Source of the DNA: Candidatus Kaiserbacteria bacterium
Lineage (GTDB): Bacteria > Patescibacteriota > Minisyncoccia > Phycocordibacterales > UBA918
Assembly: GCA_031430855.1 (NCBI GenBank)
Contig: JANPCG010000013.1
Span: 26,347 to 90,346 of the forward strand
Length of the DNA: 64,000 bases
Direction: 5' to 3'
Each line of letters starts with the position of its first letter. Positions within the stretch are counted from its first letter, which is position 1. The notes under the pieces are model-generated. The model did not search any database and was not told where the DNA came from. It saw nothing but the letters and a program-made list of their open reading frames with translations. Position numbers and translations under genes: made by a program. Below are positions 34,231 to 57,186 of the stretch, piece after piece.

Positions 34231-34321
34231 GGTCACGAATCACTAAGTATATTTGTTCACTGCGTTCCAAATCTACTAAGTGTTCTCGACCCGAGAAACA
34301 GTGTTTAGACACTGTTTCTCC
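34231..34321 (+). repeat. Modular intergenic repeat, units A+B
   Basis: A-unit: ggtcacgaatcactaagtatatttgttcactgcgttccaaatctactaagtgttctcgaccc. B-unit hairpin: gagaaacagtg-tttagac-actgtttctcc. The units recur at 56.7 kb, 57.1 kb and 36.4-36.7 kb. Confidence 0.55.
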
Positions 34322-34380
34322 GACGGTTTCTTTTTTCTATAAATGAAAAAGAAACATCGCTGCGGTTATCACAACGGCCC

Positions 34381-34447
34381 GCAAGTGACGCAGGTCACTT
34401 GCTAGATTAGAAAATACCCCAGCATTTGCTGGGGTATTTTCTAATCT
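34381..34447. repeat. Pair of perfect hairpins (GCAG-loop hairpin plus 20-bp AT-flanked hairpin)
   Basis: gcaagtgac-GCAG-gtcacttgc, then tagattagaaaataccccagc-attt-gctggggtattttctaatcta. Confidence 0.5.
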
Positions 34448-34830
34448 GCCGTTGTGTTCCCACGGGTAATGATCCTGACGGTCACCAAGCTATATTTTTT
34501 CATTTCATTCAAAATCTAGCAGGTGCCGCGGGACACGCCTCATTCATAGCAAAGCTATATCATTCCGGCGTTTCGATTACCGCAAAAGACACGCAGATGT
34601 CTTTTTCGTGGGATCACGCAACAAAAACGGCATTCACAGATGTGAATGCTCGTTTTTGTACGCGTGATCCCACGGGTAATCGAAACCCGATTTTCAGGAT
34701 GAAAACCTGATGTCCTAACCGTTAGACGATGGGACCCTAATTCCTAGGGTTTGTAACTTCATTCCTTAGGTGCGCACTATAATACCAAAAAAGTCAAAAA
34801 AAGCTAGTCATAAGGACAAGTTTTCTCTGT

Positions 34831-34870
34831 TGCGGAAGCGAGAGGATTCGAACATTACATGTTCGGTACA
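34831..34870 (-). repeat. Partial direct copy of the tRNA-Ser 3' end (23 nt) plus conserved junction palindrome
   Basis: tgcggaagcgagaggattcgaac matches 34953-34975 exactly. It is followed by ATTACATGTTCGGTACA, forming GAACAT-TAC-ATGTTC. Confidence 0.6.
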
Positions 34871-34954
34871 CCTTTCGTATCGTACCCACTCCGTTCCGTG
34901 CGATGTACTTAAGGTCTTCAAATCCTCTTTTGAAACTGACGTTTCAAATTCCTG

Positions 34955-35042
34955 CGGAAGCGAGAGGATTCGAACCTCCGAGGAGCTTTCACCCCTGCCG
35001 CTTTTCGAGAGCGGTACCTTCAGCCAGCTCAGACACGCTTCC
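34955..35042 (-). tRNA. tRNA-Ser (anticodon CGA)
   Basis: Class-II tRNA. Acceptor GGAAGCG/CGCTTCC, anticodon arm ccgct-ctCGAaa-agcgg, long variable arm, T-loop GGTTCGAATCC. Confidence 0.85.
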
Positions 35043-35324
35043 AAGCGTATAGCTAACAAGTATAACATTGCGGGCAAATATTTCGGAATTTGGAGGCAGA
35101 TTTCACTAACAGTTATACAGCTATTTATATACCTAGTTTTACCCCTAGTTATCCTCTGGCTTTTCCCCATGATATACACAGGTACTATTAAAAATATGGG
35201 TTTTATACTTTATTGACGAGAGTTTCCTATGTGAGATGCTTATTGCAGGTTTGCATGGTGGTGATTTTCTCCATACTAAAACTCTTTTGGGTTGGGGCAT
35301 GCAAGCCAAATCTCTACGTTGTAC

Positions 35325-35363
35325 AAAAGCAAAACGCTTCCCTTGGGAAGCGTTTTGCTTTTT
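35325..35363 (-). terminator. trxB terminator
   Basis: aaagcaaaacgcttccc-ttg-ggaagcgttttgcttttt, a perfect 17-bp stem. Confidence 0.6.
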
Positions 35364-35372
35364 ATGCTTAGA

Positions 35373-36296
35373 TTAATGGGCCATCAGCGTGACGTAGATA
35401 TCCTCTAGCGCCTTGACACCATCACCTGCGGAGATGTTGTTTTGGTGGTATTTAACATTAGTACAGTCACCGGCAGCCCATACTCCCGGAGTCGCGGTTT
35501 TTTGAGTCCAGGGATCAATTTCAATCCGACCGTAGGTATCAAGCGCTACCACGTCTTTAGCAAATGAGGTATTTGGAATCATGCCAATTTCAACAAAGAT
35601 TCCAGTGACTGGGAGGGTTTCAGTTGTCCCTTCAGCTGTGGTGTAGGTGAGTCCATTTACAAATTTTTCGGCTACTACAGCAGTTGGTTTAACATTTAAG
35701 AGGGCACGCATGTTAGGGTGAGCGAGAACTTTTTCGGTGGTGACCGCGTCAGCTTTAAAGGCAGGGCCTTTATGGAGTAGGGTAACAGATTTCGCGTAGG
35801 CAAGAAGTTGCGCGGCGGTTTCAAAACCGGCGTTACCGCCACCAATTACGGCGACGTCTTGTCCTGCAAAAATCGGACCGTCGCAGCTGGCGCAGTAGGT
35901 CACTCCTTTATGTTCAAAGGCATCAGCGCCGGGTACATCGAGACGACGGCGACTCGAACCGCTTGCAATCAAAATTGCTCGGGCAGTGTGAGTTTCACTG
36001 TTGTCTAGCGTGACCGTAAATGTCCCATCACTTTCTTTTAATAGGTGCTGCGCTGTGCGGCCAGCAGTAATCGTGACATATCCATCAGCGTAGGCTTCGA
36101 GGTGAGTTTTTAAATCGTTTGCGAGTTTGGTTCCGGCTATGGCAGGGGTTCCTATCCAGTTTTGGATTTCAACGGAGACTGTACTCTGTCCGCCCCAGTC
36201 AGTCGTGATAAAAAGAGTTTTAAGTCGTTTGCGCGCTGCGTATACTCCAGCTGAAATTCCGGCTGGTCCACCACCAATGATAATCAAATCGTACAT
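35373..36296 (-). CDS. trxB: Thioredoxin-disulfide reductase
   Basis: MYDLIIIGGGPAG FAD motif, CASCDG redox centre, GGGNAG NADPH motif. Start placed at MYDLII. Confidence 0.85.
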   Translation of the reverse strand: MYDLIIIGGGPAGISAGVYAARKRLKTLFITTDWGGQSTVSVEIQNWIGTPAIAGTKLANDLKTHLEAYADGYVTITAGRTAQHLLKESDGTFTVTLDNSETHTARAILIASGSSRRRLDVPGADAFEHKGVTYCASCDGPIFAGQDVAVIGGGNAGFETAAQLLAYAKSVTLLHKGPAFKADAVTTEKVLAHPNMRALLNVKPTAVVAEKFVNGLTYTTAEGTTETLPVTGIFVEIGMIPNTSFAKDVVALDTYGRIEIDPWTQKTATPGVWAAGDCTNVKYHQNNISAGDGVKALEDIYVTLMAH

Positions 36297-36425
36297 ACAA
36301 AAACTGAAATTGCTAAGTGAAGAGTAGTTTAGCATATTTTGATGAGAGGGATGTGGGAATAAGAAAACCAGCCGGGTGGGCTGGGTTTCTTGGTCTGAAG
36401 ATTTTTGGAAAGAAATACCGGCACC

Positions 36426-36487
36426 GGTCACAAGTTACTAACCATAATCATTCGCTACGCTCTGATTCTAGTAAGTACTTGCGACCC
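36426..36487 (+). repeat. A-unit repeat copy (36.4 kb, a)
   Basis: ggtcacaagttactaaccataatcattcgctacgctctgattctagtaagtacttgcgacccc. Confidence 0.5.
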
Positions 36488-36603
36488 CGGCGGGCTGGTT
36501 CAGGGCATTAGTAATAGCCCTTCACATCGCTCCGCCTCGCCGTTCCGGCTTCTTGCTAGTCAAAACTTATTTAAGTTTTGATCGACGCAAGAAAGCCGGC
36601 ACC

Positions 36604-36665
36604 GGTCACGAGTCACTAATCATAATGGTTCGTTTCACTCCCCTTCTGATAAGTGCTCGCGACCC
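36604..36665 (+). repeat. A-unit repeat copy (36.6 kb, b), in the ftsZ 3' region
   Basis: ggtcacgagtcactaatcataatggttcgtttcactccccttctgataagtgctcgcgacccc. The terminal stem covaries with copy a (caag/cttg versus cgag/ctcg). Confidence 0.5.
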
Positions 36666-36715
36666 CGCCTTGCTGTCTCGGCTTCGCCTCGTATCGCTGC
36701 GGCCGGCAGTGCCTT

Positions 36716-37954
36716 TTATTTCAGCTTGCTTCGCCGCAGAAATGCAGGTACTGCCCCCCAATCGTCCTCTTCCTCATCAATTGGGTCAACGGGCTTTGGG
36801 TCGCGACGGGGAAGCTCTGGCTTTGGTTCCATAGTCTCTACTCGAGCAATTGGCGTCTGTGCCTCTTCGACGTCACGTCGTGGATTGGTGAGTGAATTGA
36901 AAATTCGTCCCCGGGTATCAGGAGCCTTCTCTTCTACTTCAGGTTCCATTGGTGCTGCCATCGGAGCTCGCCTCGAGATGGCATGATTGTGAGCCATTTC
37001 TTCCGGGAAGCCGGTAGCAATAACGGTCACCTTGATTTCATTTTTCTTAAGCTTCTCGTCTTTAATAGCTCCAAAGATTACGCGTGCTTGTGGGTCAATT
37101 GATTCAGTAATTACGCGTGCTGCATCTTGAATCTCGAGCATTCCGAGATCGTCACCACCAGCAATCGCAAATAGGACGCCTTTCGCTCCGGTGATTGAGA
37201 CTTCAAGGAGGGGAGAGTTAATAGCTGATTGAGCCGCTTCTTCAGCGCGCTTCTCACCAGTGGAAACACCAACACCCATGAGGGCTGAACCGGCATTTTC
37301 CATAACTGAACGGATGTCGGCAAAGTCGACGTTAATGATACCAGGCATCGTGATGAGGTCAGAGATACCTTCCACCGCTTGTTTGAGGACGTTATCACAT
37401 TGTTGGAACGCATTTTGAACGGTGGTTTCTTTATCAACAATTGCAAGGAGGCGATCATTAGGAATGATGATGAGAGCATCAACTTCCTTTTTAAGTTCTT
37501 CAATACCCTGAAGAGCCAAACGCATTCGTTCTTGTCCTTCAAAGAGGAAAGGTTTAGTGACCACACCAACCGTCAAGGCACCACTCTCTCGTGCGATCTT
37601 TGCAATTACGGGAGCAGCTCCAGTTCCGGTTCCACCACCCATACCACAGGTGATGAAAATCATGTCAGAACCCTTGATGGCATTATTGATTTCTTCACGG
37701 GTTTCTTCGGCAGCACGACGTCCCATGTCGGGATTACCACCAGCTCCAAGACCACGGGTAAGGTTCTTACCAATGTGGATTTTTTTCTTGGCGAGCGAGT
37801 GGTGAAGGTCTTGCGCATCACTGTTAATGGCAATAAATTCTACTCCTTTCACTTTAGCGCCCACCATGTAGTTCACGGCATTGTTGCCTGAACCCCCGGC
37901 TCCTACGACTCGGATTCGTGCAAAAGATTCAACGTCTGATTTTATTTGTTCCAT
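36716..37954 (-). CDS. ftsZ: Cell division GTPase FtsZ
   Basis: GGGTGTG tubulin signature. Long acidic C-terminal linker. Confidence 0.9.
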
Positions 37955-38095
37955 AAATAAATAGTGATAAAAAATGTAATACCTCCAGTCCTACAGCGTC
38001 GCGACTGTTAAGTAGTGGTATCATACAGTGAATTACTAGAGCTGTCACATATTGACAGCTCTCACTTGTGTGTGTTTGACGTATTTGTTAAAACG

Positions 38096-39265
38096 TTATG
38101 GAAGGAACTGACTGAGCCACTCCAGGACTGATTTCTTGGTTTGTTTGACGACGCCAATAGCTGTTGTGTCAGCGCCATCGCTCGCGCCAATCATACAGAG
38201 ACCGTAGGCAACCGCCCAGGAGGCATCGCGAACCTTGGTATTTTTGCCAACCTCAAGAGTTGCAATTCGGGCTGGTAAATTAAGACTGGTGCGTGCTAAT
38301 TCTTGGATTCCAAGAGTAGTTGATCCTCCGCCCGTTAAAATAATTCCAGCGGGCAAGAGACCATCCTTTTTAATTTTTTTGAGATGGATATCAATGAGTT
38401 CAAAGATGTCTCCCAGGCGAGCATTAATGATTTCCTCAAGCTTTTTCTTGGGGTAGTTCGTGGTGGTCATATTGCCTCGCTTGATTTTCTCTGCTTCCTC
38501 TAACGGAATCTTGAGGCCGAGGGCGATATCGTTCGTGATATCGTTTGAGCCAATTGGGAAGACCTTAAGTGAAATGGGTGTCATATCTTCAAATACCACC
38601 ACGGAGACGGTTTCGGCGCCGATGTTGGCCATGATGCAGCCGGCACGTCTTTGTGTCTTTGAGAGGATCACATAACTCGCTGCTAAGGGCGAAGCCATCA
38701 CATCCTCGACATAAACTCCTGTTCGTTCAACTGCGCCAATGAGGTCGTTTAAGTGTTGTTCAAAGGTGGTAATAAACAACGTATCAACTTCAAGTTTTGT
38801 GCCGCGCATGCCTTGAGGCTTACCCATTACTTCTTCACCGTCAACGCGGTAGCGCAGGGGAATAGCATGAATAATTTTTCGATTTGGAATATGGTCAATG
38901 ATTCGTTCCTCACTATCATTAGCTGCTTTTTCAATATCAATTTGGGTAATTTCGGAATCAGCGCGCGAGGTAATTACTTCACCGGTTGAGACAATCTCAT
39001 CGAGACCAATACTCCCGATAGAGAGGTAAGCCTTTTTAACTAATACACCCGCCGCCTTCTCTGCTTGAGCCACGGCACTCCTGATACTGCGAATGACGTC
39101 CGTCTCGTTGATGATGTAGCCATTACGGAGCCCGCGACTCTCGGCGTATCCGGTGCCAATTATTTGAGGGAGACCACGTTCATCTCGTAATTTTGCCACA
39201 CGAACAATCGCTACCTTTACTTGGTAGGTGCCGACGTCAATTCCGGTGATGATGTGTTCTGACAT
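38096..39265 (-). CDS. ftsA: Cell division protein FtsA
   Basis: Actin-like ATPase with ITGIDVGT N-terminus, immediately upstream of ftsZ. Confidence 0.85.
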   Translation of the reverse strand: MSEHIITGIDVGTYQVKVAIVRVAKLRDERGLPQIIGTGYAESRGLRNGYIINETDVIRSIRSAVAQAEKAAGVLVKKAYLSIGSIGLDEIVSTGEVITSRADSEITQIDIEKAANDSEERIIDHIPNRKIIHAIPLRYRVDGEEVMGKPQGMRGTKLEVDTLFITTFEQHLNDLIGAVERTGVYVEDVMASPLAASYVILSKTQRRAGCIMANIGAETVSVVVFEDMTPISLKVFPIGSNDITNDIALGLKIPLEEAEKIKRGNMTTTNYPKKKLEEIINARLGDIFELIDIHLKKIKKDGLLPAGIILTGGGSTTLGIQELARTSLNLPARIATLEVGKNTKVRDASWAVAYGLCMIGASDGADTTAIGVVKQTKKSVLEWLSQFLP

Positions 39266-39283
39266 GGTGGTATTCGATGTATC

Positions 39284-39721
39284 TTATGTGACGTCATACT
39301 TATGTACAAACCGTTTTTCTAATCGTTCCATTTCGGGGCTGTGGTCATGGCCTTTAAGGTGCAAGAGACCATGAATATACAAAAACGCGATATATCCAGG
39401 TACCGAGAGGTTATATTCATGTGCCTCTTTAACTGCGATATTAGGGCAAATGACTATCTCACCAGTAGTTTCATCTAGTGGAAAAGAGAGGACGTTTGGA
39501 GTGTAGTCTTTTTTTCGATATGTCTGATTGAGTTTCTGGGCCCGGGTTGGTCCCACAAAGCTGAGAGAGAGGGTATAACGTTTACCTAGTATGTCATTTT
39601 TCATGGTCTCATAGGGCCAGGTGGGATAACTTTTAACGGTGTGAGATAAAGAAAAAGGTGGCATAGGGGACATGCGTATAGTACGTAGTATGTCACGTTT
39701 TATGACATAAGATAACCCCAC
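39284..39721 (-). CDS. ybeY: Endoribonuclease YbeY
   Basis: HGLLHLKGHDH metal-binding motif. Confidence 0.8.
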   Translation of the reverse strand: MGLSYVIKRDILRTIRMSPMPPFSLSHTVKSYPTWPYETMKNDILGKRYTLSLSFVGPTRAQKLNQTYRKKDYTPNVLSFPLDETTGEIVICPNIAVKEAHEYNLSVPGYIAFLYIHGLLHLKGHDHSPEMERLEKRFVHKYDVT

Positions 39722-39747
39722 TGCTGTGAGTGGGGTTATCTATGAGG

Positions 39748-39996
39748 TTAGCGTCGTGTGCCGCGAGTTTGTTCTTGAACTTTACCGAGTTTGAGAAGCT
39801 TTTCGTATGTCTCTTTCTTGGCAATTTTCTTGAGTTTCGCAAATCGTTGGACGTTGCTACTCTTGACTCGTTCATGGTACCGACCATCTCGGACTTTACG
39901 GATAATACCTGCTCCCTGCACACGCTTCTGGAAGCGTCGCATTACGTTTGCGCTACTCTCGTTGTTATTTTTTACGACTTCTACGTTTATTGCCAT
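39748..39996 (-). CDS. rpsU: 30S ribosomal protein S21
   Basis: MAINVEVVKNNNES...RRFQKRVQGAGI...KRK-rich tail. Start placed at MAINV. Confidence 0.75.
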   Translation of the reverse strand: MAINVEVVKNNNESSANVMRRFQKRVQGAGIIRKVRDGRYHERVKSSNVQRFAKLKKIAKKETYEKLLKLGKVQEQTRGTRR

Positions 39997-40038
39997 ATGT
40001 GGGCAAGATAGTATCATTTCCGCTCAAAAAACGCAACA

Positions 40039-40255
40039 AATTTCATTCAAAAACGCACTATCTACTTTGTTGGCTGTGCAATTATCACATTCACCGTATT
40101 TAAATACGGCTCAAGCTCAAATTGCTGGCCTTTCTTACAGGAACGGTCTACTCATTTGCTGCCTTGGCTGCGCTTTCAGCTGGCAGGCGGCTAAATGAGC
40201 CTTGCGCGAGCTAAACGCTCGCTCACTCGTATCTGGTGCGTTTTTGAATGAAATT
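40039..40255. repeat. MITE-like element with 20-bp perfect terminal inverted repeats, between hisS and rpsU
   Basis: Left TIR aatttcattcaaaaacgcac (40039-40058). Right TIR gtgcgtttttgaatgaaatt (40236-40255). The structured interior is flanked by AAATT on both sides. Confidence 0.4.
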
Positions 40256-40315
40256 AATTAATTTATCTCTATAAAAAACCACCCGAGCTATCGGGTGGTC
40301 TCTTTTGCTTCTATT

Positions 40316-41491
40316 TTACGCAGCAACCGGGGAGTTTTTCTTGAGTTTTCGGACCAGTTGATCGTGGGGGATGGGCTCTTGTTTGCGGGCGTCCATATCG
40401 CGCAGGATGACAGTGCCGTCAACAAACTCTTTTTGTCCGATAATGACGACGTATTTTACACCACGCTTTTCAGCATCACGTAGTTGGGCCGAGAGAGAAT
40501 CGTTCGCCAGGTCTTGGAAGACCGAGATGCCGGCTTTGCGCAATTCATCAATAATCATCAAGCTGCGGACCTTGGGGCCAAACCCGAGTTGAATAATGGA
40601 AACGGTTGGAGTTGAGAGCTTAAAGCGGGGAGTCCGAGCCGGAGCCTTCTGCTCACGCAAGATGGCGACAGCTCCGACTGCTGGAGTACGCTTACGCGTC
40701 TTTCGTTCGACAAAGGTATCAAAGCGCCCACCCCGGATTAAGAGTGCGTGTGGTTCAGTATCAACGTCGTGAGGGATATCGAGTGAAAAGAGTGCGTCCG
40801 AGTAGTATTCGTGATGACCGAGCATTTTTGGGTCAATTTCATACGGCGTCTCACTCATGTCGAGATATTCGATAATATCTCGAAAATGTTTTCGACTCTG
40901 ATCGCTCAGGTACTCGAGTGGGTTGGGGCTTTTAAAGGCGAGATCGTGTCCTTGCGTCACAAGGTCTTGGAGTGCAATGAGGGCATGCTGCTTCATCAGT
41001 TCGCGCGACGTGTCTGGCATCAGGTCGAGTCGTTTTCGGAGGAAATTTGTTAATTCACGACTGTATCGTACCATTGAGTCAGTGTCACCAAGTGAGTTAA
41101 TGCGGATGGTGTGATCAGTGTATCCAAGTTCGTTAGCGAGCGCCCGGCTGGTTTGAATCAGAATTGCTTCGGCGATACTTTTGCTGACATTAAAAATATG
41201 AAAAGCGACAGCGGTTTCACCGTTCTGGTCCGAAGTGTCGATTGAATATAGGAGTACCGGTCCACCAAGCGCGTGCAGTCTCTCGTCGCAGTATTGCGCC
41301 AGGCCGCGTGTCATCAGTCCTTGGACGGCGTCAAGTTCATTGTCAGCCTCAATGATGGAGTGTGGCAAAGAGGTGGTGCAGTCTTTACATAATGGATCTT
41401 TACGTAATGCCTCTACGGTTTTGAAACCAAAGTGTTCGGCGGTATGGGCCGCAATTCTTAAAAATTCTGTTGGACTACATTCGGTACGCAT
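40316..41491 (-). CDS. hisS: Class-II aaRS HisS-family protein (histidine--tRNA ligase-like) with divergent N-terminus
   Basis: Motif-3-like LLIRGGRFDTF and a class-IIa anticodon-binding domain (KYVVIIGQKE). The N-terminal motifs are atypical. Confidence 0.55.
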   Translation of the reverse strand: MRTECSPTEFLRIAAHTAEHFGFKTVEALRKDPLCKDCTTSLPHSIIEADNELDAVQGLMTRGLAQYCDERLHALGGPVLLYSIDTSDQNGETAVAFHIFNVSKSIAEAILIQTSRALANELGYTDHTIRINSLGDTDSMVRYSRELTNFLRKRLDLMPDTSRELMKQHALIALQDLVTQGHDLAFKSPNPLEYLSDQSRKHFRDIIEYLDMSETPYEIDPKMLGHHEYYSDALFSLDIPHDVDTEPHALLIRGGRFDTFVERKTRKRTPAVGAVAILREQKAPARTPRFKLSTPTVSIIQLGFGPKVRSLMIIDELRKAGISVFQDLANDSLSAQLRDAEKRGVKYVVIIGQKEFVDGTVILRDMDARKQEPIPHDQLVRKLKKNSPVAA

Positions 41492-41503
41492 AGTGTTGGT
41501 GAC

Positions 41504-42871: not shown

Positions 42872-42885
42872 GATTTTTTGATACA

Positions 42886-42918: not shown

Positions 42919-42920
42919 GG

Positions 42921-44867: not shown

Positions 44868-44875
44868 GTAATTTT

Positions 44876-49973: not shown

Positions 49974-49974
49974 T

Positions 49975-50385: not shown

Positions 50386-50642
50386 CCCCTTCAACTCCTA
50401 CTACTTTAGCAGAACTCGTAAACTTTATCATTGGTCTCATCAACCAGTTTATCCCGCTGTTAATTGCAATCACGTTTTTATTTATCGTGTGGAAACTGAT
50501 TGACGCCTGGATAATTCACGCTGATGATGAAACGCGGCGAAGTGATGGCAAAATGATTGCCTTTGTAGGCTTTGTGGTGGTTTTTATAATGATTAGTATC
50601 TGGGGAATCCTGTCGTTTCTTCAATCAACGTTGGCCGGCTAA
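50382..50642 (+). CDS. T4SS-pilin-like small membrane protein, paralog 2
   Basis: TM-loop(HADDETRRSDGK)-TM. Its start overlaps the paralog 1 stop. Confidence 0.45.
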   Translation: MTPSTPTTLAELVNFIIGLINQFIPLLIAITFLFIVWKLIDAWIIHADDETRRSDGKMIAFVGFVVVFIMISIWGILSFLQSTLAG

Positions 50643-50732
50643 AGTTGTACACAGCCCCCTAAAAACCCTTTATGGTAAACGTTTTTTAGTGTATACTGTA
50701 GGGAATTAATATTTTATTTAATTAATTACGTC

Positions 50733-51110
50733 ATGAAAAAAATTCTGTCATTATTAGGTGTATTTGCCCTCGCGGTTGTGCCTGCGATTACTTCAGCACA
50801 GATTGTGGACGGTTCTGCGGGTGATCTCGGAACAACCATCTCTGGTCTCGTTGATATTATCAATACGTATTTGATTCCGTTTGTTCTTGCCCTCGCTTTC
50901 CTCGTGTTTGTGTGGGGTATGTTCAAATTTTTTATCCTTGGCGGTGCCAATGATGAAGCGAAAGAATCAGGCAAGAGTTTGATTATCTATGCTTTGGCTG
51001 GATTTGTACTCATTGTTATCTTCTGGGGACTTGTTAACTTCTTGGTTGACCTCATCGGAGTTGATACGGCGGGACCAATTACACCACCGACAGGACCGAC
51101 GGTACCGTAA
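50733..51110 (+). CDS. T4SS-pilin-like small membrane protein, paralog 3
   Basis: Sec signal peptide (cleavage near AITSAQ), then TM-loop(GGANDEAKESGK)-TM and a Pro-rich tail. Confidence 0.5.
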   Translation: MKKILSLLGVFALAVVPAITSAQIVDGSAGDLGTTISGLVDIINTYLIPFVLALAFLVFVWGMFKFFILGGANDEAKESGKSLIIYALAGFVLIVIFWGLVNFLVDLIGVDTAGPITPPTGPTVP

Positions 51111-51146
51111 GCTGGTACGGCGAAGAATTCAAAAAAACTGCACAGG

Positions 51147-51524
51147 GTGCAGTTTTTTTGTGCTAGTTTCGCTGATATACTAAATACTATGATATTTACG
51201 ACCGCCTACGCTGCGAGCCCTGGAGCCGCCGAAACTGCCGAATTTGTTTTTCAGTTTAATGAAATTATTCTTTTCCCGGTAATTGTTTTGCTTACAACGA
51301 TTGCTCTTCTCGTCTTCCTTTATGGCTGTTTTATTTTTGTCGTCAATGCTGATAATCCATCTGGTCGAGAAGACGGAAGGCGGCATATCCTCTACGGTAT
51401 TATTGGTATGCTCGTGATGCTTATGGCGTACACGATCCTAACAGTAGCTGCCAACACTTTTGGACTAGATCGTGAATTAAATTGCGCTGATGATCCGACA
51501 TTAAGTGGCTGTTTTACCCCATAG
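51147..51524 (+). CDS. T4SS-pilin-like small membrane protein, paralog 4
   Basis: Signal-like N-terminus, then TM-loop(NADNPSGREDGRRH)-TM. Alternative start MIFTTAYAA at 51189. Confidence 0.45.
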   Translation: MQFFCASFADILNTMIFTTAYAASPGAAETAEFVFQFNEIILFPVIVLLTTIALLVFLYGCFIFVVNADNPSGREDGRRHILYGIIGMLVMLMAYTILTVAANTFGLDRELNCADDPTLSGCFTP

Positions 51525-51601
51525 TGTAAAAAAGAAACCCCCCGCTGGCCAAGATGGCACGTGCGGGGGGGGTTGAAGGTCCTTCGATTCGTCTGAAGAA
51601 C

Positions 51602-52564
51602 TTAAAGACAGCTGTTGCTACCAATCCGCCGTTCGGGGCTGATTACGACAACAGCTTCGCTGTCGTTGCGAAACCGGATCTGGTGTTGTTCTGGTTTCCA
51701 TCCCACCATCCACACGTTGTTCTTGTCTGCTGACAAGAGAGTAGGGTAGGGTCCACCAGTTACGTCCCAGTAGATGCAGCTGCCAATGAAATCGGTAATT
51801 GCAAGCGATTCTTGCCCCGGCTCGAGAGTAATCGGGGCGATGTATCCGTAAACCTTGCGGTCGACGGGTACATAGTTGGTTGTGGCTGAAGCGGGAGCAG
51901 AAACAGAGTCCCCGTCTTCTTTTCCTTCGAGCGTCTGGACGACCGATTCGGTCGCCCCGTCGATGACGGTGCCGACCCGAACGAGGGTGGGCGACGTGCT
52001 CGCGAGTGCCAAGAAGGCAACCCCGGCACAGTAGATCAGGACGCCACCAACGAGCCACTTGCCCGTGGTGATCCGGTAGAACTGCAGCAGTACCATCGCG
52101 GTGAGCGACGCTGCTGCTACATTGAAGAATGCACCAGGGCTGTTCGAGAAGGACCAGGTTGCGAGAAATCCCGCAATGATGAACCACCCGAGCAGCAATC
52201 CCCAGATGACCCGGCCAAGCATGGAAATGCCGCCAGCCATACCTTGCGAGATGTCGCGATCGTTGAGGAAGGCAGCAACACCACCAAGGGTGGTCGCGGC
52301 AGTAACGGCCCCAAGTGAGGTCGACACGGCCACGATTCCGATGGCGCCGAGGAAGAAGGGAATCAGGTTGATTCCCATCAAGCCGAAGACGTTCAGAATC
52401 CACATCACCAAGGTCACGATGACCAGGGCGATAAGGATGAAAGTGGTGAAGGCCATTCCCATGATGTTGGCGTGACCGATGGATTTCCTGATGTTTTGTC
52501 CAACTCCCGGACGGGGGTTGGACGCTACAACAAGTGCGGTGCCGGTACGAGGAGGAGTAGTCAT
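51602..52564 (-). CDS. Polytopic membrane protein with C-terminal extracytoplasmic domain, GC-rich (possible VirB6/TrbL-like)
   Basis: 320 aa with about 6 TM helices. GC content is well above the window average. It is convergent with the pilin-like array. Confidence 0.45.
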   Translation of the reverse strand: MTTPPRTGTALVVASNPRPGVGQNIRKSIGHANIMGMAFTTFILIALVIVTLVMWILNVFGLMGINLIPFFLGAIGIVAVSTSLGAVTAATTLGGVAAFLNDRDISQGMAGGISMLGRVIWGLLLGWFIIAGFLATWSFSNSPGAFFNVAAASLTAMVLLQFYRITTGKWLVGGVLIYCAGVAFLALASTSPTLVRVGTVIDGATESVVQTLEGKEDGDSVSAPASATTNYVPVDRKVYGYIAPITLEPGQESLAITDFIGSCIYWDVTGGPYPTLLSADKNNVWMVGWKPEQHQIRFRNDSEAVVVISPERRIGSNSCL

Positions 52565-52576
52565 TGGTGTTTCCTT

Positions 52577-53287
52577 TCAGAATGGATTGAAACGCGACAT
52601 GATGCGATAGAGGAACCCTTTGGGCTTCTCCTCGATCTTCTGTGCGTAATTGTTGATGTGTTGTTTGATACCTTCAGTCGGGTTGGCGCCGAGAATCCTC
52701 TTCTGCCAGTCCTCGATGGTGTCGATGTAGTCTTTTTCGCCCGGAGCGGGCATGCGTGGCAGTTGCGTCAAGTCGAAGTAGCTGAGCACCTTAAGGTAGC
52801 CCTCTTCTTCGTTTGGTGCGGTTTCAATCATCTCCACCACACTGATTATCCAATCCTTGGCGTGGTTTGTTTTGACCGAGAAAATCTGTTTGACCTCCTC
52901 GATCTTTTTCTGTTCGGCGTCTTTGGCGCCTGAAGTGACAGTTGTCTTCTTTTCACCAATCGAGACCTTTTGGTCCCAGCTGGTGATAAAGAGTCGCAGC
53001 TCTTTCAGTTTGCGCTCAGCTTTGATGGCACGCAGGCCAGTGTGCCCCTTATAGTTCTTGTTTATGAACCATCCCCAGCGAGCCAACACTTTTGGCTTGA
53101 GTTCAGAATGCAGCGTTTCAAGCTGGTGTTCGTCACCGTACCCTTTGCCAAAACCGCCAACGGCAGTTTCAGCTGCGCCAGCAGCCTTTTTGCCGAATAA
53201 TCCGGTTACCATGTCCCAGATGGAGTTTCCATGGGAGAGGGCAAGCATGCCTTCGGTCAGAAAGCCCTTAAACCGTTCGTTTGCCAT
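52577..53287 (-). CDS. Hypothetical protein, co-oriented and adjacent to the GC-rich membrane protein
   Basis: 236-aa ORF with no recognised motif. Confidence 0.4.
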   Translation of the reverse strand: MANERFKGFLTEGMLALSHGNSIWDMVTGLFGKKAAGAAETAVGGFGKGYGDEHQLETLHSELKPKVLARWGWFINKNYKGHTGLRAIKAERKLKELRLFITSWDQKVSIGEKKTTVTSGAKDAEQKKIEEVKQIFSVKTNHAKDWIISVVEMIETAPNEEEGYLKVLSYFDLTQLPRMPAPGEKDYIDTIEDWQKRILGANPTEGIKQHINNYAQKIEEKPKGFLYRIMSRFNPF

Positions 53288-53595
53288 GATATGGCTCCTT
53301 TGTGTTTATGTTGTCAACGAGCGAGACTCGTCGGTATGGTTGGGGTTTTCTGCAGTGGTACTTGTCCAGGCAGTAGTCGCCCCTTCTGCTACTATAATAG
53401 CATAAATAACTCTAAAAGTCAAGTTATGGGTAGCTAAACGAGCTATAAATAGCAACGTTAATTTGATGTTGTACATAACGTGAGCGACATGAGTACCGGC
53501 AAGACCTGTATAGAAGGCGAGGTTCTGCGTTAGTGATGAATATTGGAGTTGCGGTGCTGGTTACTGCGCGGTATCATTCCGGCACAATAGTTTAT

Positions 53596-54642
53596 ATGAA
53601 TCTCGAAACCCCAAGACAATTTCGTGATGCACGACCGCGCGATGAAAAGCGGGCTGCCATCTTGGCTGATGTGCGCACGCGTACGACGTTGTCGTTTTAC
53701 CGTTACGTAAAAATTACTGATCCGGTAGCGTTCCGCCTGCGACTGCTTAATGCGCTTGCCCAGTTTGAATGTCTGGGTCGTGTCTACGTCGCTCACGAGG
53801 GGATTAATGCTCAGATGAATGTGGTGAGCGAAAATTTTACTGCGCTTGATGCCTGGGTTCAGTCTCAGCCAGAATTGTCAGGGATATTGTATAAAATTGC
53901 CGTTGCAGAAAAGGATTTCTCTTCGTTCTATAAACTAACTATTAAAGTAAAGGAAAAGATTGTGGCTGATGGCCTTAATGATGCCAGTTTTGATGTCACG
54001 AACACTGGTGAGTACCTCACTGCCGCTGAGATGAATGAGTATATTGATGATCCAGATGCAATTGTCGTTGATATGCGGAATGCGTATGAGAGTGAAATTG
54101 GTCATTTTGTTGGTGCGGTTAAACCGGATGTTGATACCTTCCGCGAAGAATTAGCAATCGCGCCGTCTCTGTTGCGGGTCCATCAGAACAAAAAAATTGC
54201 CCTTTACTGTACCGGTGGAATACGATGCGAGAAGGCGAGTGCGTGGCTCAAGCATAATGGGTTTGAAAACGTGCGTCACCTCAAGGGTGGGATTATAGAC
54301 TATGCGCATCAAGTGAAAGAACAGGGGCTCGAGAATAAGTTCCTCGGTTCTAACTTTGTCTTTGATGAACGATTAGGAGAACGGGTAGGCGATGAAGTTA
54401 TTTCACACTGCCATTTGTGTAGCAAACAAAAAACGGATACCCACTATCACTGCAAAAATCAAATCTGCCACGTTTTGTTTCTTGGCTGTGATGATTGTGT
54501 AGCAAAGCGGCATGGCTATTGTTCTGGTCGGTGTGAAATGTCTGATAAATTACCGGTTAGTGTGAAAAAAGTATTTGCCCGATATTACAACCAGTATTTC
54601 CGCCGGCCGCAGTTCAAGAAAGCTCGATTTCGTGCCTTATAG
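53596..54642 (+). CDS. trhO: Rhodanese-domain tRNA uridine(34) hydroxylase TrhO (YceA/UPF0176)
   Basis: GRVYVAHEGINAQ, rhodanese loop CTGGIRCEKAS, C-terminal Cys cluster. Confidence 0.8.
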   Translation: MNLETPRQFRDARPRDEKRAAILADVRTRTTLSFYRYVKITDPVAFRLRLLNALAQFECLGRVYVAHEGINAQMNVVSENFTALDAWVQSQPELSGILYKIAVAEKDFSSFYKLTIKVKEKIVADGLNDASFDVTNTGEYLTAAEMNEYIDDPDAIVVDMRNAYESEIGHFVGAVKPDVDTFREELAIAPSLLRVHQNKKIALYCTGGIRCEKASAWLKHNGFENVRHLKGGIIDYAHQVKEQGLENKFLGSNFVFDERLGERVGDEVISHCHLCSKQKTDTHYHCKNQICHVLFLGCDDCVAKRHGYCSGRCEMSDKLPVSVKKVFARYYNQYFRRPQFKKARFRAL

Positions 54643-54676
54643 TCCTCAGGCTTGGTTGTGTTAGAGTAGAGATATT

Positions 54677-56191
54677 ATGGATACGAAAGGGTCTAATCCG
54701 AAGCGAATTACCTCTGTGTACTATGATGGGAGCTGTCCAATGTGTACGGCGTTTGTGGGAGCTACCGCGGCCAAAGACGAGACCTTATTTGCACTCCATG
54801 ATGTCATCATTGATTCACTGCCTGCAGACTTCACCAGAGAAGCGGTCCTGAAGGAAATGCATGTCGTTGGTGCCGATGGGACAGTATATACCAACGCCGA
54901 GGCGATACTGCAGATATTAGATACGGTGCAGTATTGGCGACGAATCACCTGGATTGGACGACTGCCGGTGGTGCGGAATGTATTGCCGGTGGGGTACGGT
55001 ATTGTGGCGCGTAACCGACACTTTATTTTCGGACCCGCGAGCCGGTTGTTTTGGGTGAAGAATGTCGCTTTGCTGGGGCTACTCTCCAGTATGGCGCTGT
55101 CGTTTCCTTTGTGGGTGCAAACGGATAGTATTGCAGCGGTACCTGTCTTTGGTCGACTTCCAATTCTCTCACCGTTAATTGAATGGGGAATGTATATAGG
55201 GGTGTTTTGTTTAGCCTTGGTTAGTTTGATTTCGCCTAGGCCACAGCGTTACTTGTGTGGACTATTGGGTATTGTGGCGGTATTTGTACTGTTTGATCAA
55301 TTGCGTCTTCAGCCATGGCTCTATCAGTATTGGTTTATGCTACTGCCACTTGCTGTGTATTCGTGGCAGTGGCGAGATAGGGTATCGACGAATGCGGTTC
55401 TCAATACCCTCCGGATTTTAATTGCGGGGATATATTTTTATAGTGGGCTACAGAAAATTAACCCAATGTTTTTCCAAGAGGTGTTTCCCTGGATGGTAGA
55501 ACCAATTGCCGCGTTTCTCCCGACCTCTCTTAATTTAATACCAGCGAGTTTTGGATTATTTGTCCCGTTTATTGAAATAGGGATTGGTATAGGATTGCTT
55601 ACAAAACGATTTAGGTTTGCTGCTTTGGTTGGAGTTATTTGCATGATGGTATTCGTTCTCATCACACTTGGACCTCTTGGTTATGGTTGGAATAGTGTCG
55701 TCTGGCCATGGAATTTAGCTATAGCGGCGTCAGCGTGGCTGTTGTATTACAAGACCGCTAATGTTTCTTTTAAAAACGTATTTAGAGTAAGGCACTTTCT
55801 GCCTCATAAAGTAATCATTTTACTTTTTCTTGTAATGCCTGCCTTCAGCTTTTTTGGGTATTGGGATTCGTACCCATCCTATTCGTTGTATTCGGGGAAC
55901 ATAACTGACGCCCAAGTATTCGTATCATCTAAATTGGTAAGTCCAGCTTTAGAAAATGCAGCGTTTTTAGCTTATGGTGGTATGGTCTGGATAGACCTCC
56001 AGACACTTTCGTTTAATGAACGTAATGTGCCGATGTATCCTGAGACAAGAATCTACACGAAAGTATTTGCTCAGCTATGTGAGACTGAGTTGCCAGTCAC
56101 GGCTGAACTCGTCGTGACGACCAAAACCACGTTGCTGCAACCCCAGAGAGAATTACGGTATAAGTGTGAAAATATGTTGAGTAGTGATTGA
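54677..56191 (+). CDS. DCC-family thiol-disulfide oxidoreductase (DUF393) fused to an HTTM-like polytopic membrane domain
   Basis: N-terminal VYYDGSCPMC (DCC motif), then ~10 TM helices rich in Trp and Tyr. Confidence 0.5.
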   Translation: MDTKGSNPKRITSVYYDGSCPMCTAFVGATAAKDETLFALHDVIIDSLPADFTREAVLKEMHVVGADGTVYTNAEAILQILDTVQYWRRITWIGRLPVVRNVLPVGYGIVARNRHFIFGPASRLFWVKNVALLGLLSSMALSFPLWVQTDSIAAVPVFGRLPILSPLIEWGMYIGVFCLALVSLISPRPQRYLCGLLGIVAVFVLFDQLRLQPWLYQYWFMLLPLAVYSWQWRDRVSTNAVLNTLRILIAGIYFYSGLQKINPMFFQEVFPWMVEPIAAFLPTSLNLIPASFGLFVPFIEIGIGIGLLTKRFRFAALVGVICMMVFVLITLGPLGYGWNSVVWPWNLAIAASAWLLYYKTANVSFKNVFRVRHFLPHKVIILLFLVMPAFSFFGYWDSYPSYSLYSGNITDAQVFVSSKLVSPALENAAFLAYGGMVWIDLQTLSFNERNVPMYPETRIYTKVFAQLCETELPVTAELVVTTKTTLLQPQRELRYKCENMLSSD

Positions 56192-56200
56192 GATAAATAT

Positions 56201-56236
56201 AAATAAATCCCTCATAAGAACGAGGGATTTATTTTT
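56201..56236. terminator. Bidirectional terminator
   Basis: aaataaatccctc-ataagaacg-agggatttattt. Confidence 0.55.
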
Positions 56237-56353
56237 ATGAGAGTAACACGAAGAGAGTGCGCGCGTGCGAGGTGACGGGGGCACCGCGCAAGACCATTTG
56301 AGCTTATTTTGACCGAAGGGAGTAAATGAGCCAAATGGTATACAGCTTCGGTA

Positions 56354-56386
56354 CGAAGAGGACTTGAATCTTACAGATTCTGTACA
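56354..56386 (-). repeat. Degenerate partial copy of the tRNA-Leu(TAG) 3' end plus covarying junction palindrome
   Basis: gaagaggacttgaatc, compared with the tRNA's gagaggacttgaacc. It is followed by TTACAGATTCTGTACA, forming GAATCT-TAC-AGATTC. Confidence 0.5.
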
Positions 56387-56432
56387 CCTTTTGGATATAT
56401 TCTCCCGCCGGTCGAATCTATCGCAAAAGGTT

Positions 56433-56485
56433 TTGAAACAGTTTCCCAAACTGTTTCAACCTCCACGGATTGCTCCATTAGTTCC
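56433..56485 (-). repeat. Perfect 12-bp hairpin plus a 28-nt exact copy of an internal tRNA-Leu(TAG) segment
   Basis: ttgaaacagttt-ccca-aactgtttcaa. aacctccacggattgctccattagttcc matches 56528-56555 exactly. Confidence 0.5.
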
Positions 56486-56509
56486 ATTTTGTTTGTAAAC
56501 CTTTCAAAG

Positions 56510-56591
56510 TGCGCGCGAGAGGACTTGAACCTCCACGGATTGCTCCATTAGTTCCTAAGACTAACGCGGCTACCAATTACGCCACACGCGC
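56510..56591 (-). tRNA. tRNA-Leu (anticodon TAG)
   Basis: Class-II tRNA. Acceptor GCGCGTG/CGCGCGC (one G-U pair), anticodon arm ttagt-ctTAGga-actaa, long variable arm, T-loop GGTTCAAGTCC. Confidence 0.85.
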
Positions 56592-56672
56592 ACTTTGAAA
56601 ACTTTACTGTGTCGACGAGTATAGCATGAAAATAGGGGTTTGCCAGGGTTGGTGGTCGCACCAAGATTCTGT

Positions 56673-56767
56673 GGTCACAGATAATTTCTTTCATAAATTT
56701 CCGCGACCCGAGAAACAGTGTTTAGACACTGTTTCTCCCACTGTCGCAGGGCGACATGTCTCCGTCT
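56673..56767 (+). repeat. Modular intergenic repeat, units A'(short)+B+C
   Basis: ggtcacagataatttctttcataaatttccgcgaccc + gagaaacagtgtttagacactgtttctcc + cactgtcgcagggcgacatgtctccgtct. Confidence 0.55.
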
Positions 56768-56780
56768 CGCACCAGAGCAC

Positions 56781-56845
56781 GTATCTGCCGCAGGGCAGAT
56801 ACCAAACAATAAATACCATTCATTTGAATGGTATTTTATTGTTTG
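56781..56845 (-). terminator. GCAG-loop hairpin plus 19-bp perfect hairpin terminator of tRNA-Lys
   Basis: gtatctgcc-GCAG-ggcagatac, then caaacaataaataccattc-attt-gaatggtattttattgtttg. Confidence 0.55.
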
Positions 56846-56848
56846 CTC

Positions 56849-56924
56849 TGGTGCGCCCTCAAGGATTCGAACCTTGGACCGTCTCCTTAAGAGGGAGCTA
56901 CTCTACCAACTGAGTTAAGGGCGC
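56849..56924 (-). tRNA. tRNA-Lys (anticodon CTT), CCA encoded
   Basis: Acceptor GCGCCCT/AGGGCGC, D-loop AGTTGGTA, anticodon loop ctCTTaa, T-loop GGTTCGAATCC, 3' ACCA. Confidence 0.8.
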
Positions 56925-57000
56925 ATTGCTATGTATTAGTACATACGACCCGGCGTTCTTAATGAGGGCAAAGTGCATGGGATGCAGTTTGCGCGACACT

Positions 57001-57020
57001 ACTGAGTTAAGGGTGCAATG
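57001..57020 (-). repeat. Partial copy of the tRNA-Lys 5' acceptor/D-arm segment
   Basis: actgagttaagggtgcaatg, compared with actgagttaagggcgcattg at 56909-56928 (18 of 20 identical). Confidence 0.45.
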
Positions 57021-57090
57021 TATTAAGTTGTGGGCCAAAGTGTACAAGATTATGACCAAATTAACAAGGTATTAGTAGGGGCGTGACTTG

Positions 57091-57186
57091 GTCGCAAATC
57101 ACTAAGTATATTTGTTCACTTCGTTCCAAATTTACTAAGTGTTTGCGACCCCGACTCAACTGTCGCAGAGCGACATGTTTCCGTCT
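57091..57186 (+). repeat. Modular intergenic repeat, units A+C
   Basis: ggtcgcaaatcactaagtatatttgttcacttcgttccaaatttactaagtgtttgcgacc + caactgtcgcagagcgacatgtttccgtct. Confidence 0.55.

Follow-up and report, generated by a model that had tools for sequence, protein, structure and literature searches.

We describe here T1, a structured intergenic element found in a 64,000-nt stretch of a Candidatus Kaiserbacteria bacterium genome (assembly GCA_031430855.1, contig JANPCG010000013.1, positions 26,347 to 90,346, forward strand). This whole stretch is referred to as the window, and positions are counted from its first nucleotide. An initial annotation of the window had reported a modular family of structured repeats made of units A, B and C. 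The family was indeed modular and structured, but the units were not independent: they are helices of one non-coding folded module, T1, of approximately 110–130 nt. T1 lies on the sense strand of its upstream gene, often a tRNA gene, and many copies are flanked by an inverted and a direct copy of the 3′ end of that tRNA. We suggest that the T1 family consists of small non-autonomous cassettes, which enter the tRNA T-loop by recombination at approximately position 56/57, and assign this reading a probability of roughly 0.45. What was observed directly is presented first: how the element is built, which strand carries it, its covariation and distribution, its coupling to tRNAs, the origin of its arms and its polymorphism.

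Structure and strand of the T1 module

The four full-length copies of unit A were all recovered within 1 nt of the positions first given for them (34231–34291, 36426–36486, 36604–36664 and 57090–57150). In a scan of the window the pattern GGTCRC..CGACC had 10 matches, against 1.2 expected. A short form (56673–56708) and a degenerate form (29046–29103) were genuine variants, as each is preceded by the helix P2 in register with the canonical modules; their covariance-model scores were weak (17 and 10 bits, respectively). Unit B was present at 34293–34320 and 56710–56738, with the same sequence at both sites, and unit C at 56739–56767 and 57153–57185. The covarying terminal arms quoted for unit A were correct, and the repeats were intergenic and non-coding, as had been proposed.

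The orientation proposed for unit A did not hold, since the structure is carried by the reverse complement. With the covariance model, the five canonical copies scored 69–83 bits on the tRNA strand and at most 30 bits on the other strand. The reverse complement folds better because A.C mismatches turn into G.U pairs, and on the tRNA strand of the 130 listed homologues 176 G.U pairs were counted against 11 A.C. The window copies annotated on the plus strand all adjoin tRNAs or other genes on the minus strand, and the reverse-complemented copy adjoins the sole plus-strand tRNA.

T1 folds as a three-way junction of helices P1, P2 and P3. P1 is built from the local flanks, with the purine-rich joiner GAAAG next to it. 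P2 starts with a 3-bp helix, which a conserved 3x2 internal loop (G-N-A facing G-A) separates from a helix of 2 bp; a hairpin of variable sequence completes it, and GG comes next. P3, the reverse complement of unit A, is a 61-nt hairpin of approximately 25 bp with a near-invariant G.U, bulged A and U.U within ACUUAGU/ACUUAGU. Its apical stem-loop is variable, the commonest form being GAGCGAAGCGAA. Unit C, which reads AGACGGAG-ACATGTCGC..GCGACAG-NCGAG-TCGG in the sense orientation, lies directly 5′ of the reverse-complemented unit A, and unit B is an extra 28-nt hairpin between P2 and P3 in two copies.

T1 sequences were harvested with a pattern fixing 20 nt of P3, P2 being outside the pattern. 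In the alignment of the 130 listed sequences, 96% of the cells at paired positions were paired. The covariation score was 0.49, compared with 0.15 for shuffled alignments (none of 500 shuffles reached the observed value) and 0.05–0.11 for slid controls. The pairs flanking the P2 loop covaried strongly, and loop and bulge nucleotides not included in the search pattern (GNAG, CGAG) were conserved at 90% or more. Another 50 profile matches departed from the pattern. They kept the motif and carried compensatory changes at the “fixed” positions, such as GCUU/UUAGC and UUCUU/UUAGAA. Coding potential was ruled out, as the conserved ACTTAGT motifs contain stop codons and the sequences vary by covariation and not in a codon-like manner. 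No open reading frame (ORF) was found within the cassettes, the inserts being 100–250 nt long.

Coupling to tRNA genes and origin of the arms

The repeats had been noted next to tRNA genes. This adjacency was confirmed, but the coupling to the tRNA 3′ end and the inverted and direct copies of T-arm and acceptor 3′ sequence had been overlooked. In the genome set, 93 of the 130 listed matches were downstream of a co-oriented tRNA, mostly by 80–140 nt, and one was in the opposite orientation. In the independent metagenome set, 78 of the 134 listed matches were downstream of a co-oriented tRNA (median distance 118 nt) and none was in the opposite orientation; for many of the remaining metagenome matches the flank was cut off by the contig end. 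Among the matches listed, T1 was found behind tRNAs of at least 19 amino-acid specificities.

The layout comprises the tRNA (its 3′ end termed X1), a terminator-like hairpin, an antisense copy of the tRNA 3′ side (X′), the core, and a sense copy running from nt 57 to the 3′ end (X2). X′ is contiguous over nt 54–65 and is often extended by the complement of nt 66–76. It copies non-palindromic T-loops (AATCGAA for TTCGATT, AATCGGA for TCCGATT), and at 22 of 26 informative sites it was the reverse complement of nt 61–65 and not sense nt 49–53. X′ is thus genuinely an inverted copy of this side of the tRNA. A hairpin with a CUGC loop usually sits exactly at the 65/66 junction, upstream of the T-arm part of X′ (X′T), and the complement of the acceptor 3′ strand (X′acc) lies beyond that hairpin. 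X2 was near-identical to the tRNA in most of 60 units, with individual copies ranging from perfect to decayed. It normally ends at the tRNA 3′ end, without added CCA, and a terminator of its own comes next.

Where X1 and X2 disagreed, X′ sided with the real tRNA in 24 cases and with X2 in none, and compensatory maintenance of P1 between X′ and X2 was seen in 0 of 33. Copies of a tRNA's own 3′ end within 700 nt downstream were found for 56% (antisense) and 59% (sense) of 190 tRNAs at the listed loci, compared with 16% and 12% in upstream controls. Approximately 35–50% of T1 copies are of a short form, in which pairing with the 3′ end of the upstream RNA is confined to a few nucleotides and P1 is a short local helix. 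The copies behind ftsZ and tRNA-Trp have no tRNA-derived arms.

Two simple sources of the arms were ruled out. A pseudo-tRNA with an insert in its T-loop does not account for X′, since X′ corresponds to the 3′ strand in antisense and not to the 5′ strand in sense. One T2 copy in the window (56458–56485, see below) does have the form of a tRNA fragment with an insert and is an exception. A retro-copy of a mature tRNA was rejected because both X2 and X′ run into the genomic trailer and no CCA has been added. In read-through RNA, the X1-terminator-X′ hairpin is predicted to beat the tRNA fold, leaving the 5′ acceptor strand of the tRNA to pair with X2. This modelled alternative fold may be biologically relevant.

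Modules in the window

The window contained 14 modules, namely five canonical T1 copies, one truncated T1, three T1 variants and five copies of a second core family, T2. Together they take up approximately 2 kb of the 64 kb, and at least one module was present at eight of the nine tRNA genes. The modules missed initially were a canonical copy (19993–20053) on the opposite strand, 130 nt downstream of tRNA-Phe, the truncated copy (20223–20273), a variant (34472–34570) and all five T2 copies. The modules and their parts are as follows.

19938–20053 (+): T1 copy 1, downstream of tRNA-Phe (19789–19863), 81.5 bits; X′T (reverse complement of tRNA nt 54–65) 19938–19948, P2 19950–19990, P3 19993–20053; 5′ of it, X′acc 19900–19912 and CUGC-loop hairpin 19914–19935
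20054–20102 (+): degenerate sense copy of the tRNA-Phe 3′ end (X2), then a 93%-identical repeat of the terminator and X′acc segment 19876–19917
20153–20273 (+): T2-like core (20153–20212, ..GGTATAC-AGTTTC-TGTAA-GATC) and truncated T1 P3 (20223–20273, 3′ end missing, 17.6 bits, nhmmer E=5e-10)
29046–29185 (−): variant T1, the “degenerate copy” of the initial annotation, downstream of tRNA-Val (29220–29294); X′acc 29177–29185, CUGC-loop hairpin 29153–29176, X′T 29140–29152, canonical P2 29093–29139, variant P3 29046–29092
34231–34367 (−): T1 copy 2, 69 bits; 5′ part of P2 34321–34367, unit B hairpin 34293–34320, P3 34231–34291
34454–34619 (−): variant T1, downstream of tRNA-Glu (34664–34736), 27 bits; X′acc 34607–34619, hairpin 34584–34606, X′T 34572–34583, P2-like 34536–34570, variant P3 34472–34535, X2 34454–34471
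34830–34928 (−): T2 module, downstream of tRNA-Ser (34954–35042); X′T 34917–34928, core 34850–34916, X2 (tRNA-Ser nt 57–76) 34830–34849
36426–36603 (−): long hairpin Y/Y′ (approximately 36540–36600) and T1 copy 3, 77 bits; P2 36489–36536, P3 36426–36486
36604–36712 (−): T1 copy 4, a few nt past the ftsZ stop codon, 82 bits; P1 GGCAC/GTGCC, P2 36667–36703, P3 36604–36664
56357–56485 (−): T2 locus, downstream of tRNA-Leu(tag) (56509–56591); partial sense tRNA nt ~34–55 56458–56485, hairpin, T2 core 56366–56434, tRNA nt 57–65 56357–56365
56673–56802 (−): variant T1 with short P3, the “short version” of the initial annotation, downstream of tRNA-Lys (56849–56924); CUGC-loop hairpin 56781–56802, X′acc 56768–56780, P2 (unit C) 56739–56767, unit B 56710–56738, short P3 56673–56708
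57078–57233 (−): T1 copy 5, downstream of tRNA-Leu(taa), 83 bits; X′acc 57223–57233, CUGC-loop hairpin 57197–57222, X′T 57187–57196, P2 (unit C) 57153–57185, P3 57090–57150, decayed X2 57078–57089
57234–57377 (−): T2 module, beside tRNA-Leu(taa) (57429–57513); X′T 57368–57377, core 57299–57367, X2 57276–57298, own terminator hairpin 57234–57275
57530–57614 (−): T2 module of the GCTGTTG.. subtype, downstream of tRNA-Cys (57663–57735); X′T 57605–57614

The apical hairpin of the T2 module behind tRNA-Cys was homologous to the apical part of T1 P3. In the partial sense duplicate at 56458–56485 (−), the T2 core sits, after a hairpin, in the T-loop of the tRNA-Leu(tag) fragment. A 16-nt copy of the tRNA-Lys 5′ end was found at 56985–57010 (−), approximately 60 nt upstream of tRNA-Lys. 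Beside the tRNA-Glu modules there is a direct repeat of 106 nt (33357–33462 and 33630–33735, 76% identity) in or near ORFs without a Pfam match. The window also contained a coding repeat with a 21-nt period at 541–1243, rich in GAT and GAA codons (an acidic repeat protein).

Other cores at the same site

At the listed loci, 60 X′-core-X2 units were found at 52 tRNAs and comprised several unrelated core families. T1 was the commonest family among T1, T2, T3 and others. The T2 core has the form ..AAGGTTGCC-hairpin-GACAACCT-GTAC-stem-UGUAA-stem and was downstream of a co-oriented tRNA in 17 instances; none was near only an opposite-strand tRNA. The T3 core reads GGGGTCGGGGAACC... Variants of T1 were also among the cores. 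Composites of T2 and T1 were found at five loci (L228, L119, L032, L048 and L074), where the UGUAA hairpin of T2 is fused directly 5′ of T1 P3 (..TGTAAGATTCGAGAGTACTTAG..).

Hairpins with a C-U-G-C(G) loop (for example GCAAGCAAACTGCTTTGCTTGC) recurred in the window at 19914–19935, 29153–29176, 34381–34403, 34584–34606, 56781–56802 and 57197–57222, and at many other loci. One was found within a sense 3′ copy (L041), and others are used as tRNA terminators (L007 and L045). These hairpins look like a separate mini-hairpin repeat.

Distribution and database searches

A genome scan with the 20-nt pattern, including one genome per species, recovered at least 119 loci (130 matches). At least 118 of them were labelled Patescibacteria, or candidate phyla radiation (Paceibacterota, Nomura-, Kaiser-, Yonath- and Lloydbacteria, the Parcubacteria group and Saccharibacteria), these labels, that of Saccharibacteria included, being taken unverified as given on the metagenome-assembled genomes (MAGs). 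The sole other label among the listed matches was on a flavobacterial MAG, in which the module had the miaA-tRNA-Trp gene order of other loci. This MAG is probably mis-binned. A metagenome scan recovered at least 120 loci (134 matches). The window, itself part of a metagenome-assembled Patescibacteria genome, has ftsA-ftsZ, and contigs matching it came from metagenomes and from glacier-fed-stream MAGs, including GCA_043735715.1. Thus, occurrence beyond the window and covariation, which were both proposed as checks on the initial annotation, were both found.

The proposed check against Rfam likewise left the repeat family without a match. At the gathering threshold, Rfam 15 detected no family other than tRNA, either in the 64-kb window or in 18 related loci totalling 132 kb. 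At E<=10, a search of the tRNA-Phe locus (19700–20350) returned tRNAs and chance miRNA-like hairpins, and a YrlA match in the Rfam scan was a 16-bit chance overlap with tRNA-Phe. Topical and exact-sequence searches of the literature found no description of the T1 module.

Neighbouring genes and orientation

Genes beside the modules encode MiaA, the CCA-adding enzyme, YraN, ParB, RuvX and similar proteins. GC skew was positive across the window (1–64000), so that both module orientations occur in one replichore. An orientation set by replication, as in IS200/IS605-like elements, was ruled out, since module orientation tracks the gene. Unusually for such genes, eight of the nine tRNA genes in the window lie on the lagging strand and thus face replication head-on.

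An ORF family of approximately 230 aa, without a Pfam match, was also found at these loci. Its members have an N-terminal HTH-like region and a LAGLIDADG-like “LYWAEGAK” motif, and end 5–50 nt upstream of a co-oriented tRNA gene (Gly, Arg, Met or Gln). They are at L015 2047–2739, L030 2119–2772, L059 1928–2614, L064 1251–1973, L073 7169–7864, L096 53–478, L099 3934–4797, L104 3056–3736 (−) and L108 2584–3264 (−). To judge from its motifs, the family may be a free-standing homing-endonuclease-like gene aimed at tRNA 5′ flanks.

Turnover between strains

Two strains approximately 99% identical to the window (L124 and L125) were without a 181-nt block downstream of tRNA-Leu(taa). The block, delimited by the 10-nt repeat GGGACTTGAA, contains a T2 core, X2, a terminator and X′ (the T2 module 57234–57377 and 57187–57233). 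In strain L002, the second module of the ftsZ-trxB spacer (T1 copy 3) had been replaced and the first kept. Apical hairpin segments were exchanged, with compensatory changes, between strains that are approximately 99% identical (34500–34520 compared with L001 6438–6458, and 57565–57590 compared with L125). This suggests gene conversion among copies. At locus L208 (4051–4655), five 100%-identical T1 units with a 136-nt period are arranged in tandem downstream of a T2 unit with a tRNA-Asp 3′ copy, and L209 has a P3-only copy. P3 sequences 92–98% identical to window copies were found beside different tRNAs in other genomes, and every window copy compared had a nearer relative in another genome than inside the window.

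In a strain of the window organism, an unrelated insertion sequence (IS) with an rve-type integrase was located at L001 6481 (equivalent to window 34471/34472), exactly where the variant T1 core meets the sense copy of the tRNA-Glu 3′ end. In L126, the last approximately 100 nt of the contig are a tRNA-Leu fold-back at the palindrome of tRNA 3′ end, terminator and inverted arm. The inverted repeat probably broke the assembly there.

T1 as a proposed cassette integrating in the T-loop

We infer the integration mechanism, and any function of a transcript, from these observations. The structure of the cassette would form in a single strand, and the cassette would enter the tRNA gene by recombination in the T-loop, approximately at 56/57. 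A replacement tRNA 3′ end with its terminator would be brought in or regenerated, so that the tRNA would stay intact and its old 3′ end would become the displaced direct repeat. Copying would then keep the inverted arm complementary to the real tRNA, and the cassettes would later be shuffled by gene conversion, unequal crossing-over and, probably, DNA uptake. The inverted arm might belong to a site that, folded as a single strand, resembles the duplex target. Alternatively, template switching in the X1-terminator-X′ quasi-palindrome might have perfected it later, and would then account for the agreement of X′ with X1.

T-loop integration is favoured because it was the only model considered that naturally gives both an intact tRNA and a displaced direct repeat from the T-loop to the 3′ end. 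Also in keeping with it are the variety of cores, the strain polymorphisms and the range of ages among X2 copies.

Several observations weigh against this reading. No transposase, integrase, reverse transcriptase or recombinase linked to the elements was found when 2126 ORFs from the 119 listed loci were clustered. There was no T1 match in 2.9 million viral contigs, and so no sign there of a phage-borne origin. The compared loci included no clean pair of empty and filled sites for a first insertion, and the 181-nt polymorphism may reflect either a gain of the block or its loss between the 10-nt repeats. The invariance of the fixed P3 columns is partly by construction, because the search pattern fixes 20 nt. 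We know of no integrase that would account for how the arms are re-tailored to approximately 19 types of tRNA.

Long-term retention at some loci points in the same direction. The ftsZ-proximal module was at the orthologous site in at least four other genomes, in which FtsZ was 80–85% identical. T1 was also present behind tRNA-Trp next to miaA in 10 genomes with 37–65% MiaA identity, and module similarity correlated with MiaA similarity (rho 0.41–0.57). Taken together, these data suggest that the modules were inherited vertically and held by selection, a pattern that a host function explains at least as well as selfish mobility does.

Alternative explanations

The main rival is that T1 is a cis-acting RNA element of the host, a conserved 3′-end module acting in the ftsZ 3′ untranslated region (UTR) or in the read-through trailer of the tRNA. 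A conserved Patescibacteria protein or RNase would bind T1 to define, protect or process 3′ ends, and the many copies would be due to duplication and gene conversion without transposition. The ftsZ locus speaks most directly for it. Both modules there belong to the ftsZ 3′ UTR, because the only intrinsic terminator (36368–36384) follows both, and they thus lie between that terminator and the stop codon. With the proximal module at the same site in at least five genomes, P1 covaries (GGCAC/GTGCC, GCACA/TGTGC, GGTACC/GGTACC), as does the inter-module hairpin. The tRNA-Trp copies, the conserved loop and bulge nucleotides outside the pattern, the sense orientation with its strand-specific G.U bias, an orientation that follows transcription rather than replication, and the failure to find mobile-element genes near the listed loci all agree with a host element.

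However, behind tRNAs the module is placed past a canonical terminator-like hairpin and would be transcribed only by read-through, where the inverted arm is predicted to unfold the tRNA. At least three unrelated cores share the landing site, and half of the copies do without duplicated tRNA 3′ ends. Subfamilies are not linked to orthologous loci, as in the case of a P3 98% identical to a window copy that lies beside a different tRNA elsewhere. Strain indels, replacements, tandem amplification, truncated copies and T2-T1 fusions are also difficult to reconcile with a host element. We consider this explanation somewhat unlikely. The two readings are compatible, since a cassette can be domesticated, and the ftsZ 3′ UTR and tRNA-Trp copies, long kept at the same locus, may serve the host as 3′-end structures.

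A broader possibility, which we regard as rather doubtful, is that T1, T2 and T3 represent an unrecognised class, either of ORF-less T-loop-homing elements or of a new tRNA-like RNA. In the first form, the hairpin of tRNA 3′ end, terminator and inverted arm would, as a single strand, mimic the duplex of T-arm and acceptor target, in the manner of CTXphi and attC. A host enzyme would integrate single-stranded DNA, whether incoming or excised, or a cDNA, at 56/57, and the tRNA would be regenerated. In addition or instead, an expressed X′-core-X2 unit would be a tRNA-like RNA, whose core would recruit a Patescibacteria-specific factor.

It is improbable that the cassette is simply an independent tRNA-like small RNA acting in trans. 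Here the X′acc-hairpin-X′T-core-X2 unit would be expressed and excised by RNase P and RNase Z as a minihelix with the acceptor stem on the T stem, the hairpin replacing the D and anticodon arms and the core replacing the T-loop. Long-form X′ and X2 do rebuild the acceptor and T stems of the adjoining tRNA. Moreover, the CUGC-loop hairpin is placed exactly at the 65/66 junction, where nt 8–48 leave a real tRNA, and X2, in which the discriminator base is retained, has an A-tract and a terminator of its own behind it. However, approximately 35–50% of T1 copies, including those behind ftsZ and tRNA-Trp, are without tRNA-derived arms, and X2 is decayed in many copies. The 24 to 0 agreement of X′ with the tRNA over X2, and the lack of compensation in P1, also argue against a maintained product. 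A sigma-70-type promoter scan found no enrichment at the modules. ARAGORN detected only the tRNAs and no tRNA-like gene at the modules, where the T-loop nucleotides are paired, and Rfam agreed.

The initial annotation had favoured a family of the repetitive extragenic palindrome (REP) and bacterial interspersed mosaic element (BIME) type, or a small non-autonomous family. The non-autonomous character is probably right, but T1 is not of the genome- or genus-specific REP/BIME type, as the module occurs under many Patescibacteria lineage labels. A strict REP/BIME or miniature inverted-repeat transposable element (MITE), moved by a single-strand transposase of the RAYT/IS200/IS605 type or by a DDE transposase acting on constant termini, is very unlikely. 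T1 resembles such elements in being intergenic, hairpin-forming and orientation-specific, in a structure on one strand that tolerates G.T, in its insertion beside hairpins, and in the IS found at a module junction in one strain. The proposed kinship fails on the absence of GTAG with a short palindrome (the GTAG-type guide tetranucleotide), of constant terminal inverted repeats and of a short target-site duplication. No RAYT gene and no enrichment of Y1 or DDE genes were found among the ORF families near the 119 listed loci, orientation follows the gene and not replication, and REPs are species-specific.

Finally, a self-cleaving ribozyme or other catalytic RNA, trimming read-through RNA or its own by docking of P2 and P3 across the junction, would suit a compact three-way junction in which both of two neighbouring helices hold conserved unpaired nucleotides, and the many widespread copies at the ends of transcription units, but is highly improbable, given that no Rfam ribozyme family (hammerhead, twister, pistol, hatchet, HDV-like and hairpin included) was detected at E<=10 in 19700–20350, that neither a hammerhead, twister or HDV-like core motif nor a CUGANGA/GAAA core was seen by inspection, that P3-only, truncated and P2-variant copies persist, and that T2 and T3 occupy the same site without T1 motifs.

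Implications

Patescibacteria genomes are very small, and yet approximately 2 kb of the window is given over to 14 such cassettes. A covarying structure found in many Patescibacteria MAGs but missing from Rfam indicates either a gap in what is known of their RNA biology or a new route by which non-coding DNA spreads. In the first case, T1 could bear on how 3′ ends of tRNAs and mRNAs are made or protected with a reduced RNase set. In the second, the tRNA T-arm, the most conserved sequence in any genome, would serve as an anchor for an element without a gene of its own. Were T1, T2 and T3 a new class, this would amount to lineage-wide, tRNA-anchored propagation of non-coding cassettes in bacteria that depend on DNA uptake. 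In practical terms, the long palindromes of tRNA 3′ end, terminator and inverted arm break assemblies (as in L126), and duplicated tRNA 3′ ends can mislead the annotation of tRNAs and genomic islands. T1 could also be used as a sequence marker for Patescibacteria contigs.

Comparison with known systems

REP/BIME, ERIC and pneumococcal BOX elements are structured intergenic repeats that are restricted to species or families and have constant ends of their own, BOX being built of A-B-C modules. By description, T1 is similar to them in being multi-copy, ORF-less and modular, in its intergenic or 3′-UTR hairpins and probably in co-transcription with the upstream gene. Unlike them, it spans many Patescibacteria labels, is tied to tRNA 3′ ends and has outer arms copied locally. 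Whereas a REP is a palindrome of 20–40 nt with a GTAG-type 5′ tetranucleotide, T1 is a 61-nt hairpin with a second helix and a junction, and has no GTAG-type motif. Unlike those of a MITE, the outer arms of T1 differ at every locus, being copies of the adjoining tRNA, and its direct repeat of approximately 18–20 nt is set by tRNA landmarks (nt 57 to the 3′ end) and is not a target duplication of fixed length.

Integron attC sites and CTXphi attP(+) are folded single-stranded recombination sites in which one strand is active, structure matters over sequence and a folded inverted repeat takes the place of a duplex site. By analogy, X1-terminator-X′ would mimic the duplex of T-arm and acceptor. 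Unlike attC, the T1 alignments have no R″/R′ boxes (RYYYAAC / GTTRRRY); there is no dif-like site, and the neighbours are tRNAs and housekeeping genes.

Patescibacteria tRNAs also carry group I introns, at position 35/36 in the anticodon loop (PMC13011429), which are distinct from T1. T1 is similar to these and to group IIC introns in being small, structured and associated with tRNAs or terminators, IIC introns inserting 3′ of hairpins. Unlike group I and II introns, T1 has no Rfam match to a catalytic core, is 100–130 nt long as against more than 400 nt for group II, and leaves the tRNA uninterrupted. In archaea, tRNA introns transpose as short insertions at defined positions, including the T-loop, and are removed at a bulge-helix-bulge by a splicing endonuclease. 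T1 and these introns are alike as related short insertions at defined positions of many tRNA genes. However, an intact tRNA precedes the T1 insert and, as far as we know, bacteria lack the bulge-helix-bulge splicing-endonuclease pathway.

T1 also has parallels in insertion geometry with tDNA islands, in which a regenerated tRNA is accompanied by a displaced 3′ fragment as a direct repeat (Islander definition, PMC4383910). Within this group of systems, the attB of mycobacteriophage Ms6 is in the T-loop of a tRNA-Ala gene (PMC1762012). Like the islands of tyrosine integrases, T1 leaves the tRNA intact, has a direct repeat from the T-loop to the tRNA 3′ end and is fixed in orientation. Unlike them, it inserts only 100–250 nt, with neither an integrase nor any other ORF, the same core is found at approximately 19 tRNA specificities, the tRNA 3′ end is copied once more in inverted orientation, and the cores are conserved, covarying single-strand structures. 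T1 parallels both structured intergenic repeats and tDNA-integrating elements, yet does not fit the definition of either. What is new in T1 is the combination of ORF-less cassettes of 100–250 nt, a sequence and structure conserved in MAGs of many Patescibacteria labels, inverted and direct arms copied locally and association with approximately 19 tRNA specificities.

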